Shown here piece by piece: positions 24,001-27,000 of a DNA stretch of 64,000 bases; position 1 is the first letter of the stretch; every line of letters begins with the position of its first letter. This DNA is from a plasmid. The stretch lies in assembly GCF_057098645.1 (NCBI RefSeq), contig NZ_JBXSPU010000002.1. The stretch is one strand, 5' to 3'. The position numbers were made by a program.

Positions 24001-27000
24001 CTGTATTTTAATGAGTAAATTTTATTCATGGTTTTGTATATGGCGTTTTCATCACCAGCCTCAAGATCCATTTCGAAGCAATTGTGATGAAAACAGCTCT
24101 GTTATTTATAAATAAAGCTCTCAGCCATAAGAGCCATACACCAATACCAATACCCCATGAAAAACAAAAAATCAACCAGACAAACAGAATGAAAACAAAA
24201 AATAAATCATTTGGTTTTATTCTTTTTATTAAAAACATAAAGTAATGAGAGGTATTCAATGATGCCAGTGTCTGCGATACAGTAAGGACGCTCAAAATTG
24301 GTGTTTGGATCTCCTAACGTTAATATAATCAGTGTGCCTGCTCTAAATAGCTGTGCCGAATACCGCTACACTTTTACCAGCCCATGTTTACCACCGGGGA
24401 ATGGGCTCACGGTTTCCATAAAATAATGAACCTTTTTCAGCTGTTCGCCACCGCTGTAGGAACCCGCGAGTCGAGTCAGCCGGAGAGAATTTCACTCCCT
24501 GGCTGCTCATGGAACCGTACGTGACACTCTCGCGTCATACGGCTCTTGATCACTCATTCGATGCACGTAGTAAATACCAGTGGACAAATAGCTTCGGATA
24601 CTCCTTCCTTACCCGTCAGCTTTCGCTGAGCCTTCCGGTTCGAAAGTCTGTATTTAGACAGCATCCACTTGAGCAGACGTGACTGCATTGCACTCCACAG
24701 TCGATAGTTGAAATTTCTGGACCAGAACTTTCCGTAGTACCCGATCCAGCCTCTCACTATCGCATTGTAGCGCCTCGCAAAATCCAGCAAGCGCTCAGCT
24801 GTTGAGCGATGTATACGCCACTTCTTGATTGTTTCTGTTATTTTGCGCATTGCTGCATTTGACGCACCCGGCATGCATTTTCGGTACAGTTCGCCTTTGA
24901 AATTCTTCAGCGTACGCACTTTGAAGTCATATCCGAGAAAGGTGAAACTCGTTGCGACGTTTCTCCTTTTAAACGTGTCAATGTAGGCGATATTCGTTTT
25001 CCCTGCATTCAGGGCCAGCCCGACTTCCGAGAAGCGCTCCGATAACCTGTTCTTCAGCCTTGTTGCATCACTCATTCGTGAACAATGTACTACAATATCA
25101 TCAGCGTACCTCTCAAACGGTACCCCCCGATATTCTCTTTCCATCCACAAATCAAATGCATAGTGAAGGAACAAGTTAGCAAGTAGCGGACTAATGACCC
25201 CGTCCTGCGGAGTGCCTCGTGTTCGGGTTATTAATTCTCCATTTTCACAACTCTGCATTGGCGCTTCCATCCAGCGTCGACAGTACAGGATGACCCATTT
25301 AGGCATCCCGTGGTGTTCCAGTGCTTTGAGCACCAGATCATGTCTCACATGGTCGAAAAACGCACTGATGTCCACTTCCAGTATCCAGCTATAACGCCAG
25401 CACCGGATGGCACATTGCTTCAGAGCGTCATGAGCTGATTTGCTTGGTCGGTAACCATATGAATCAGCATGGAAAATCGGGGCAAGCTTTTCTTCCATGA
25501 AAAGTTTTATCGCTCCCTGAGCAATTCGATCGGATACTGTTGGGAGCCCCAGAATGCGCTCCTTGCCATTCGACTTCGGGATCCGTTTTTCCAGCACTGG
25601 TGGCGGAAACCATGTTCCCGAACATAGCCGGTTCCAGATCTTGTATAGATTGCCATCACGTTGCTGGTCGAACATTTTCAAAGTCTGTCCGTTGCATCCG
25701 GGGGCTCCCTTGTTGCGACGCACATCCAGATATGATGCCCAGACCAGTGCTTTTGGTATTTCAAATGATTTTCGTTGCATCGGTTACGTCATCCCCTTTT
25801 GGGTTGTGTCTTCTGCAATGAATGTGATCCCCATCCCTTCTCTCCAGACCCATTACAGATTTTTCATCACTACTACGAATGAGTCCGCCCCTGTTTCCCG
25901 ATACGTGCCGGAAACAGGTTCTCACGTTCCCTGAGATGGTCTGGCTCGGGCTCCTGCTGCCTTCACACCGGATGCTGCGCAGTCAGTAAGCAGGTGACTT
26001 CTGCGCTTGTCAGGGGACGGCTCTACGGCCCCATTTTGACATCATCTAAGATTTCGATGCATCATCGGACAGTTTACTTTCGTTCAGCTTCCCGAACCCC
26101 ACGTGACAGTCGATCTCTGCCTTTTCCCGAGTCGCTCACCACCTCATTCCTTAGAATGAAGCAGCACCGGGTCGTTTGGTCAGTGCTCCTGTAAACCCTG
26201 ACCGGAGGGCCCACCTCCACCCACCTCAGAGCATGGATAACTTATGCTGCAATTTTCATATTGTTGCCATAATCCAGTCCCATTCACGTTGTGAGAGCTT
26301 CTCAGCACCAACAGAGAGCAGAACTGTATCAATGCTTTTGCGGGTCAACATAAAGGGATGGGGCGTGCGGCAACAACAGGACTAACGGGGCCGGTTTTCA
26401 ATTTGCAGCCGCCAGGCTGCCGTGGTTCCTTAGGGCGGTGCCCATATTACGAGATAAGATCAAGCAATGAGTTAAGTTATAACAGGGGCCTGAATATATA
26501 GGGGGACAATATCTTGAAAAATATCAGTAAAATTTTAAAAAAAACATGCAAGTATTGATTTTTACAGAGTGGCAATAAAAAATTAATAGAAAACAAACGC
26601 GCATGAAGGTGGTTAATGCTTACATCTAAAAAAGAAATGCAGTGTTCTAAAAATAAACAAGAGGATAATTTAACGTTATTGTTAACCAATTACATTTCAT
26701 ATCAGAATATAGTTATATTTACGGGGGGAATCAGTTTAAGATAAGAAACAAGAAAGAATTCACCGAATACACAACAGGACCAAAATCATTGTTTTTTTTG
26801 GCAAAAAATACTCGCTGGGACATGGAAGTTGTCGGAATCGATAATAGTAATCCGTACAGGAAAATTATAATTGATGATGCATTAATTAAGTTGCTGCATT
26901 CAATATCATCTGATGACTCTTGTTATGTAAAAAAAATATATTTACCGCGGACCTTAATGAAACGCAATTGAATATAGTTTACAATATAATTGAAGATACA

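Follow-up and report, generated by a model that had tools for sequence, protein, structure and literature searches.

The motif repeated at three sites in a 64,000 nt stretch of plasmid DNA (NCBI RefSeq assembly GCF_057098645.1, contig NZ_JBXSPU010000002.1; the window) was identified, on sequence homology, as the IRR end of insertion sequences (IS) of the IS630 family (ISSpu2/IS630/ISEc33-like). It is part of a known element, not of a new one, and its biology is ordinary. The overall account, to which we assign a probability of about 0.9, is that the motif is such an end, that one copy (copy A) lies near a group II intron (intron 1) through nested insertion followed by deletion, and that a second (copy B) reflects the insertion of a class C (IIC) group II intron (intron 2).

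A repeat search of the window aligned bases 24343–24413 with 28262–28332 at 85% identity over 71 nt without gaps, and placed a 40 nt repeat at 1336–1375, 24343–24382 (78%) and 28262–28301 (93%). This bears out the collinear repeat of about 70 nt, with a third partial copy lacking the hairpin, that was described in the first-pass annotation. An imperfect palindrome is present in copy A (24378–24408) and copy B (28297–28327) and is missing from the third copy (copy C). The pattern CTAAATARCTGNNCNNAATA, corresponding to the first 20 nt of the motif, was matched on the plus strand at 1336, 24343, 28207 and 28262, with an additional weak match (2 mismatches) at 43058; by chance 0.12 matches are expected in the window, and five were reached in 0 of 100 shuffles. 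The plus-strand matches therefore include a fourth site, at 28207 and consisting of the inverted repeat (IR) only, that was absent from the earlier list.

An 81 nt motif query matched 2,335 plasmids by BLAST, and the genes overlapped were annotated as 'IS630-like element ISSpu2/IS630/ISEc33 family transposase'. PGAP annotations of relatives agree with an IS630-family transposase, and the anchor sequence of the IS630-like end was found in many Enterobacterales genomes, in Pantoea, Edwardsiella, Erwinia, Citrobacter, Enterobacter and other genera. The transposase CDS of the reference elements stops 24–31 nt inside the motif on the opposite strand, and the minus strands of copies A and B encode the last 25 and 15 aa, respectively, of ISSpu2/IS630 transposases (tblastn). 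The motif is made up of a 20 nt terminal IR, the transposase stop codon and the last 15–25 transposase codons (minus strand), and the palindrome sits inside this coding sequence, in the codons for SPFPGGKHGL. Four relatives that are complete or nearly so have an opposite end that, inverted, aligns with the first 20 nt of the motif, and the complete relatives L002 and L016 have the flanks C-TA...TA-G. IS630 reportedly duplicates a TA target, typically within CTAG (Tenzen and Ohtsubo). (C)TA precedes all four termini in the window, which are solo ends. Read along the plus strand, each copy would begin with CTA derived from insertion into a CTAG/TA target, and the IR of about 20 nt that precedes the stop codon and final codons would be the site bound and cleaved by the DDE transposase. 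An integron attC site, an IS91-type end and a MITE were dropped as identities for the motif when BLAST led to IS630.

All copies of the motif in the window are dead, one-ended solo remnants in an E. coli virulence plasmid. A search of the minus strand of the window with the IR pattern found no inverted partner IR, and an intact mobile IS630 element (two IRs and a full transposase gene) is absent, 65 aa of internal transposase sequence being left. Remnant C (1336–1375, minus strand; repeat search and BLAST to ISSpu2 and the L016 element) retains the IR, the stop codon and 2–4 codons and breaks exactly at the 5′ base of the palindrome; the same 35 nt remnant is found in pO157 plasmids, upstream of the ecf operon. 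The fourth site is an IRL-type end of an IS630-like element (28207–28264, plus strand; IR pattern match), 89% identical to the IRL end of the L016 element, and starts 20 nt past the perC stop codon. In E. albertii pEA17_2 an almost complete IS630-like element begins at the identical site by perC, and the end at 28207–28264 is probably the other end of the element to which copy B belonged. An internal piece of an IS630-like transposase (aa ~194–258) was found at 30088–30275 (minus strand), 98.9% identical to positions 195–382 of the L016 element and 92% to the ISSpu2 transposase (tblastn), and bases 30079–30273 match NCBIfam NF033545 (transpos_IS630, E=1.3e-6). This piece shares the orientation of remnant B, with element positions 84–194 deleted.

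The suggestion in the first-pass annotation that the motif might be the end of an unrecognised small element is not upheld, as BLAST, tblastn, the shared IR and the transpos_IS630 match make it part of a known IS terminus. A small non-autonomous element such as an IS630-derived MITE might account for four solo termini without an inverted partner and for a copy C of just 40 nt. However, copy A is collinear with a full IS630-like element over 99–103 nt and the intron-free allele carries a near-complete IS at that site, the element of copy B resumes at 30088–30275 with transposase coding sequence, and E. albertii carries nearly the whole element at the perC site. No short (<300 bp) elements with two such IRs and TA duplications were seen, and a MITE is extremely unlikely.

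Remnant A (24343–24445, minus strand) is 97.5% identical to the element end in NZ_CP148386 and was also recognised by tblastn and the IR pattern. It comprises the IR (24343–24362), the stop codon (24366–24368, minus strand) and the last ~25 codons (24369–24441), which include the palindrome and align by tblastn with the C-terminus of ISSpu2/IS630 transposases (QLKKVHYFMETVSPFPGGKHGLVKV, then the stop); its right boundary is ambiguous within a TGTT microhomology at 24442–24445. Adjacent to it is a fragment of an IS66-family (IS679-like) tnpC gene at 24446–24469 (minus strand; it may start at 24442) with the codons ...FAGSYSGGE.., which is the 3′ exon of intron 1. The exon sequence TCGCGGGTTCC.. 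is present from 24469 leftward, at the ..RKNWL/FAGS.. site of IS66-family tnpC, and is collinear with E. coli 536 and L005/L007/L008, in which it runs on for ~190 bp as far as the IS66 IR GTAAGCG. In E. coli 536 the TnpC reading frame (..GRKNWLFAGS..) is restored by exon joining.

Intron 1 (24470–26272, minus strand) is the group II intron E.c.I3, with Rfam matches to RF00029 (24547–24470, full model) and RF01999 (26218–26102) and 98.3% identity over window bases 24442–26272 to the one copy of E.c.I3 that E. coli 536 carries. Both the presence of E.c.I3 in strain 536 and its homing into IS679 have been described by Leclercq et al. 2012 (PMC3522654). The IEP ORF (24554–25780), D5–D6 (24547–24470) and the canonical 3′ splice site are kept; the first ~22 nt and the 5′ exon are missing. 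Two other positions for an end of intron 1 were rejected, 24451/24452 (the BLAST extent) as alignment spill-over and 26428 as the end of an unrelated IIC-intron 3′ fragment that is fused to the truncated E.c.I3.

With the intron ending at 24470, 56 nt separate it from the end of the motif at 24413, and these are made up of 28–32 nt of further IS630-like sequence and 24–28 nt of the tnpC exon. The earlier placement of the motif at intron boundaries accordingly holds for 28262–28332, which directly precedes intron 2, and does not strictly hold for 24343–24413. Nor is the motif an exon remnant of either intron; the exons of intron 1 are IS66-family tnpC. The intron-free allele, NZ_CP148386, has a near-complete IS630-like element at the site of copy A. 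In L005, IS630-like sequence is followed directly by the IS66 IR GTAAGCGG, then by 188 nt, the exon and the intron; relative to L005 exactly 190 bp have been lost from the window, with TGTT at the joint. The nearness of copy A and intron 1 is indirect, via a nested IS66::E.c.I3 insertion followed by deletion. An IS66-family element with E.c.I3 already in its tnpC, the gene in which this intron is known to reside, inserted in the IS630-like element ~100 nt short of the end of the latter, and a later deletion of 190 bp between two TGTT tetranucleotides took away the IS66 terminus, leaving the 24–28 nt of tnpC exon that separate intron 1 from the IS630 remnant.

Copy B lies directly 5′ of intron 2. 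Remnant B (28262–28334, minus strand; tblastn) is 93% identical to the L016 element and 92% to ISSpu2, and consists of the IR (28262–28281), the stop codon (28285–28287) and the last 15 codons (28288–28332), within which lies the hairpin. IS630 homology ends at 28332–28334 and the intron begins at 28333–28335; its canonical 5′ end is at 28333 (±2 nt), 5 nt past the hairpin, the boundary being ambiguous by 2 nt because the first intron nucleotide in this subfamily is A, not G. The 5′ part (28333–28810, plus strand), containing D1–D4 and the start of the IEP ORF, matches Rfam RF02001 (28444–28613) and RF01998 (28648–28732) and is 97.3% identical to a full-length intron in pMRE600-1. It is followed by an IS66-family fragment (28811–29689, minus strand) that stands in for 828 nt of the intron and includes the 3′ part of tnpB, tnpA and, at 29689, the terminal IR GTAAGCGCC, as recognised from the annotation of an identical plasmid, BLAST to tnpB/tnpA and reading of the IR. 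A further part of the IEP (maturase) ORF was found at 29690–30087 (plus strand), 99.2% identical to positions 1412–1809 of the pMRE600-1 intron and collinear with the 5′ part; its PGAP annotation in the identical plasmid reads 'group II intron maturase-specific domain' protein. A deletion has removed the final ~200 nt of the intron, with the ORF end, D5 and D6.

The IEP of the pMRE600-1 relative aligned end to end with the GsI-IIC RT (6AR1; E=1.8e-136) and matched the E. rectale IIC maturase (7UIM; E=6.6e-105), and by the match of this 97–99% identical relative intron 2 is assigned to class C. The relatives of intron 2 have the D5 GAACCGCCGTATGCGGAACCGCACGTACGGTGG and the 5′ end GUGUGCGCCGGGCAUGG, which presumably resemble those of the O. 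iheyensis IIC intron; D5–D6 are gone from the copy in the window. By reverse splicing, the IIC intron entered the antisense strand of the transposase gene 5 nt past the palindrome, and it was subsequently disrupted by an IS66-family insertion and deletions, in what is the probable order of these later events.

The insertion at copy B is documented on one side because the 3′ junction of intron 2 with the IS630-like element has been deleted. Its absence, the lack of a T-tract in the hairpin and the extensive rearrangement of the region (an IS66 insertion, two or more deletions and a probable inversion) would all suit a joint formed by illegitimate recombination or deletion in which the hairpin is irrelevant. 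This is nonetheless highly unlikely: the joint falls no more than 2 nt from the first nucleotide of the intron, where a breakpoint placed at random would land with a probability of about 0.002, and IS630-like sequence lies on both sides of the intron, collinear and in the same orientation (28262–28334 and 30088–30275). The same 5′ junction, ..GT/ATGTGC (slash at the junction), is common to the window, L012, L013/L131 and L129, which belong to the window's own subfamily and provide three other independent contexts. Copy B is a genuine intron target, used in a single event in one plasmid lineage.

In the family of intron 2, all six independent contexts (the window and five others) have a hairpin ending 1–9 nt upstream of the intron; in two of the relatives (L009 and L014) the hairpins are terminator-like with T-rich tails. 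The hairpin of copy B, folded as DNA, has a stability of −13.1 kcal/mol (z = −4.3), the most stable among 34 family variants, which range from −2.5 to −13.1 kcal/mol. IIC introns are reported to insert at the stem-loops of intrinsic terminators and of attC sites (Robart et al. 2007, reviewed in PMC4424553). The stem-loop of copy B belongs to neither kind; it is IS630 coding sequence. No terminator-like site was found in 28100–28450, and the reading of the hairpin as an intrinsic terminator was rejected. It is not a classical class C target because it has no T-tract and was not scored as an intrinsic terminator. The target of class C introns is a DNA stem-loop with a few exon nucleotides, and the hairpin may be the feature recognised by the IIC RNP.

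Across the 34 family variants covariation in the palindrome was weak (0.114 versus 0.101 in shuffles, with 15 of 500 shuffles as high), and one third of the family sequences are mismatched at its two freely varying pairs. The weak covariation means that the palindrome may be a by-product of the coding sequence. With covariation barely above that of shuffles and many mismatches at synonymous pair positions, a selected, conserved hairpin is not claimed.

The pattern CCGGGGAATGGGCTSACRGTN{0,4}GTGYRC, representing the junction, had no match in one representative genome for each of 100,044 species. Its two matches in metagenomes were both the same plasmid, at 99.5–99.9% identity, and BLAST found the IIC/IS630 junction in nine plasmids, all of one lineage, so that use of the hairpin is not supportable by recurrence and a recurrent homing site was rejected. 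The motif itself was recovered widely, in the 2,335 plasmids and many genomes, and none of 34 aligned distinct variants of the IS630-like end from other records has an intron at the copy B position. In the literature on group II introns, IS630 and E. coli, the RmInt1/ISRm2011-2 system was the only one found, and the copy B junction was not reported there.

The proposal that the motif is a homing site for a class C intron survives for copy B only, through the IEP match, the 5 nt geometry and the five other contexts; it does not extend to copy A or to a recurrent site. In its stronger form, with the motif as a dedicated homing site or exon remnant that accompanies both group II introns or draws them in, it is already largely refuted and is very unlikely. 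Two of the three copies do lie within 60 nt of an intron end, intron 2 starts 5 nt after the hairpin of copy B, and RmInt1 offers a precedent by retrohoming into a defined homing site in ISRm2011-2 (IS630 family) of Sinorhizobium meliloti. Against this, intron 1 has its true exons in IS66-family tnpC and reached copy A by nesting and deletion, the relatives of intron 2 sit behind unrelated hairpins, and neither the 34 end variants nor the species representatives and metagenomes yielded a second lineage.

The motif and the behaviour of both elements are already known and ordinary, and the importance of these findings beyond annotation is little. They supply labels for two broken introns and for three or four IS630-family remnants that had no annotation, all on an EPEC plasmid of the EAF type, and illustrate how deletions after the nested insertion of IS and introns can mimic a shared "intron boundary motif". 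Copy B places a class C intron at a stem-loop that is of neither listed kind, inside another mobile element, a case that fits the view that these introns read DNA structure and not sequence. It is improbable that the subterminal palindrome of the IS630 family truly makes up a further class of structured DNA target for IIC introns, one not listed so far beside terminators and attC; if true, variants with stronger stems, such as copy B, would be preferred, and IIC introns would hitch-hike on and inactivate IS630 elements.

Compared with the IS630 family (IS630 of Shigella sonnei, ISSpu2 and ISEc33; Tc1/mariner-related DDE transposons), the window copies have the same 20 nt terminal IR, CTA/TA flank, stop codon overlapping the IR region and C-terminal transposase codons (..TVSPFPGGKHGLAKV, then the stop), with 84–93% nucleotide identity to annotated elements. 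Unlike those elements they are cut to 40, ~100 and 73 nt and a 188 nt internal piece, and copy B has three substitutions that strengthen the palindrome, changing GK to RG in the protein. With E.c.I3 in IS679 (IS66 family), intron 1 shares 98% identity (E. coli 536 copy) and the tnpC 3′ exon, but it is 5′-truncated by ~22 nt and fused to an IIC-intron 3′ fragment, and the IS66 element that carries it is without its terminus and sits within an IS630-like remnant. RmInt1 is likewise a group II intron resident in an IS630-family element. RmInt1 is not known to be a class C intron, whereas the IIC intron in the window is a single insertion, antisense to the transposase gene and probably guided by structure. 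Among class C introns (such as GsI-IIC, B.h.I1 and S.ma.I2), intron 2 is like the others in the IEP of its relative, which is En-less and a close match to the GsI-IIC RT, and in having its 5′ end a few nt past a DNA stem-loop, on the strand that bears this stem-loop. It differs in that the copy is broken, without D5–D6, and in its target, a palindrome in the terminal codons of an IS630-family transposase gene, entered on the antisense strand.

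A repeat search of the window aligned positions 24343–24413 (copy A) with 28262–28332 (copy B) over 71 nt, without gaps and at 85% identity, and a three-copy family of 40 nt added positions 1336–1375 (copy C). The motif that the first-pass annotation had noticed at three sites is thus a genuine repeat. Its opening 20 nt follow the pattern CTAAATARCTGNNCNNAATA, which a scan of the window located at positions 1336, 24343, 28207 and 28262, on the + strand every time, together with one weak match (two mismatches) at 43058. The number of matches expected by chance is 0.12, and none of 100 shuffles had five. 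The match at 28207 therefore marks a fourth site, missing from the earlier list, that consists of the terminal inverted repeat (IR) only.

When an 81 nt query around copy B was used in a BLAST search, matches were found in 2,335 plasmids from Klebsiella, Escherichia, Shigella, Citrobacter, Enterobacter, Serratia, Pantoea and others, and wherever such a match was annotated, the feature under it was 'IS630-like element ISSpu2 / IS630 / ISEc33 family transposase'. Two reference elements, ISSpu2 beside blaNDM-1 and the IS630 of S. sonnei pINV, have their transposase CDS on the other strand from the motif, with its end 24–31 nt inside it. The motif is therefore the right (IRR) end of an IS630-family element, read from outside to inside. 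On the + strand it begins with CTA, made up of C plus the TA from insertion into CTAG, and C-TA...TA-G flanks complete relatives of the IS630-like element. Then come the IR of approximately 20 nt, also found at the opposite end of complete elements, the transposase stop codon (24366–24368 in copy A, 28285–28287 in copy B) and the last transposase codons, for which tblastn aligned copy A to the transposase end ...QLLKKVHHFMDTVSPFPGGKHGLAKV and copy B to TVSPFPG(RG)HGLAKV. The palindrome (24378–24408 in A, 28297–28327 in B) lies within the codons for SPFPGGKHGL. At 30079–30273 lies a further stretch of this gene, from its interior (aa 194–258), which matched the NCBIfam model transpos_IS630. Among species-representative genomes, a 22 nt anchor from the motif was present in dozens of copies in Pantoea stewartii and also in Edwardsiella, Erwinia, Arsenophonus, Citrobacter, Enterobacter, Cedecea, Rouxiella and others. 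The motif belongs to an already known family, IS630: the first-pass annotation had considered an intron homing site, an exon remnant or the end of an unrecognised small element, unless the motif proved to be part of a known IS terminus, and an IS630-family end is what was found. The IR, transposase and TA-flank features of the family were looked for and found, but no complete IS630-like element is present within the window, where every copy stands alone, and the copies are therefore remnants.

The window is from an EPEC EAF-type IncF plasmid, and pCAU16175_2 was 100% identical to it across the 10 kb tested. It includes an autotransporter gene (20088–24071), perC (27918–28187) and numerous IS3, IS66 and IS21 copies. 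Three ALIL frameshift pseudoknots, marking IS3-family copies that form inverted and direct repeats of 1.1–1.3 kb, and the CopA antisense RNA, a mark of an IncFII-type replicon, were located (152–268, 8655–8771, 46246–46362 and 48466–48555). Inverted repeats of 246 nt (13944–14189 and 18078–18323, 93% complementary) enclose approximately 3.9 kb. The IS-end-like sequence CTTAGG..CCATATTACG is found at 14156–14180, 18088–18112 and 26429–26453, the third of these right where the intron 1 region has its outer edge.

Copy C has no adjoining intron; it is reduced to the IR, the stop codon and a few codons, breaking off exactly at the 5′ base of the palindrome. In pO157 plasmids the same remnant, of 35 nt, sits upstream of the ecf operon (bases 2501–2535 in pO157). 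In Escherichia albertii pEA17_2, the stretch that adjoins copy C on the right (window 1379–1510; 9363–9494 in pEA17_2) instead follows a 68 nt IS66 end that interrupts an IS630-like element. Sequence comparison suggests a common but rearranged ancestry for the copy C region (window 1336–1378), pO157 and pEA17_2.

Downstream of perC, a left (IRL)-type end (28207–28264) stops at ...GGTTTATGC-TA and is there joined to the precise IRR terminus TA-AATAACTG (28262–28334), the two reading in one direction. At the identical site pEA17_2 (8250–9300) has an almost whole IS630-like element, IRL to IRR, and then TA-TCTGC. It looks as though the element's own IRR end transposed into a TA that lies 57 nt in from the IRL end, with inversion of the body; if so, the ends at 28207 and 28262 would be the two ends of one element.

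An intron-free allele for copy A was found in pZ1323HEC0011-2 (NZ_CP148386), where a near-complete IS630-like element, starting at the same nucleotide as copy A, comes after the same autotransporter gene. The window tracks this element up to 24441–24445 and diverges beyond. Rfam places domains V–VI of intron 1, hence its 3′ end, at 24470 on the minus strand, and 24442–26272 is 98.3% identical to the single copy of E.c.I3 in E. coli 536, which is 1,824 nt long, starts with GTGTG and ends with GAC. Joining the strain 536 exons restores an IS66-family TnpC frame (..GRKNWL|FAGS..), and E.c.I3, listed in that strain, is said to home into IS679 (Leclercq et al. 2012, PMC3522654); because of this, the 24–28 nt between intron 1 and the IS630 remnant are tnpC exon, not IS630 sequence. 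An intermediate is kept in NZ_LR882979, in which IS630-like ...CAGCTGTTGC adjoins the IS66 terminal repeat GTAAGCGG, followed by 188 nt of the tnpC 3′ end, the exon ...GCATGTT CGCCACC and the intron. By comparison, the window is missing exactly 190 bp, with the joint inside a common TGTT at 24442–24445. An IS66-family element already bearing E.c.I3 went into the IS630-like element, and a deletion at the microhomology later left intron 1 and the motif 56 nt apart. Intron 1 lacks its first ~22 nt in the window and is fused at 26272/26273 to a piece related to a class C (IIC) intron 3′ end. In NZ_LR882979 and pEA17_2, IS66-family ends are inserted in IS630-like elements approximately 100 nt away from the IRR end, at sites about 17 nt apart.

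The IS630 homology of copy B stops at 28332–28334. The stretch between 28329/28333 and 28810 shares 97.3% identity with a group II intron in pMRE600-1, and a collinear second piece (29690–30087) is 99.2% identical to positions 1412–1809 of that intron. The 828 intron nt between them are replaced by an IS66-family fragment (28811–29689), whose terminal repeat GTAAGCGCC adjoins intron 2 at 29689/29690. This edge is that of a genuine insertion of IS66 in the intron; the joint at 28810/28811 (28804–28811) is inside tnpB and so must be a deletion. In the stretch 29622–29690, the IS66-family terminal repeat GTAAGCGCCTCATCTGAACCG (minus strand, ending at 29689) adjoins the intron 2 ORF. From 30088 onwards the IS630-like element continues, its orientation unchanged, starting at element position 195 and with 98.9% identity to a complete relative (L016), so the last ~200 nt of intron 2 and IS positions 84–194 were lost together. 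As IS630-like sequence is found on both sides of the intron, it was the intron that inserted into the IS. The intron-encoded protein (IEP) of the pMRE600-1 relative (443 aa) aligned along its entire length with the GsI-IIC RT (6AR1; E=1.8e-136) and also matched the E. rectale IIC maturase (E=6.6e-105); the intron 1 IEP matched the GsI-IIC RT at 3.8e-40 only. Judged by sequence, intron 2 is class C. Four independent contexts of its subfamily share the junction ..GT|ATGTGC(G/A)CC, so the junction in the window is the canonical 5′ end, with a margin of only 2 nt, since ..GGTAT is also how the IS630 sequence reads. The copy B stem ends at 28327, followed by unpaired ACGGT (5 nt), and intron 2 begins at 28333, antisense to the transposase gene and thus unable to be spliced from transposase mRNA. 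Class C 3′-end fragments are also found at 14190–14553, 43535–43834 and 26273–26428 (minus strand), with no Rfam call at the gathering threshold. A D5-like hairpin (GAACCGCCGTATGCGGAGCCGCATGTACGGTGG) is at about 14213–14246, 14254–14553 is 100% identical to 43535–43834, and 26273–26428 is a related piece (96%) fused to the 5′-truncated E.c.I3.

In copy B the inner 5′ arm differs by three substitutions (TTTCCCA to TCCCCGA), which make its DNA hairpin (-13.1 kcal/mol) the most stable among 34 family variants, the rest ranging from -2.5 to -12.8 (copy A -7.5, ISSpu2 -8.6, IS630 -5.8). Across the family, 88.5% of cells are pairable, counting G-U pairs. Covariation is weak (0.114 versus 0.101 for shuffled data, and 15 of 500 shuffles scored as high) and the two synonymous-site pairs are mismatched in 11 and 7 of the 34 sequences, so we do not claim a selected structure; the palindrome may simply follow from conserved coding sequence.

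Relatives of intron 2 were found directly behind the hairpins of the bcsB terminator (L009/L010) and the sta2 terminator (L014), and behind other stem-loops in pMRE600-1 (L012), L013/L131 and L129, with 1–9 nt between stem and intron. In pMRE600-1, the IIC intron of this subfamily is inserted behind its hairpin in the left-end part of an IS3-family element (pMRE600-1 2401–2507, compared with window 40–145). That element shares 94% identity with the IS copies at window 1–1126, 7797–8922 and 46095–47220, and this is another case of the subfamily landing inside an IS. The IS630 stem plus IIC 5′ end pattern had no match in one representative genome for each of 100,044 species, and in metagenomes it was found in two contigs, both 99.5–99.9% identical to the window plasmid. 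By BLAST, the junction was found in nine plasmids, all of one lineage, and nowhere else, and all 34 distinct variants of the end that were aligned from other records are uninterrupted at the copy B position. The IS630 hairpin as a recurrent intron target was rejected, the junction being confined to one plasmid lineage. The earlier proposal of class C homing downstream of a stem-loop holds for copy B only, as a one-off event in which intron 2 starts 5 nt after the hairpin at a canonical junction; it fails for the other copies, copy A having been brought close to its intron by deletion.

Intron 1 is E.c.I3 residing in an IS66-family element, the known home of this intron. IIC introns insert at terminator or attC stem-loops (PMC4424553; PMC3522654), and intron 2 is like the published examples in its insertion 5 nt past a stem-loop. 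Its target differs from the usual class C ones: the copy B hairpin has no T-tract, is not terminator-like and is not an attC site. Intron 2 is a class C intron acting as class C introns do, except for the type of target.
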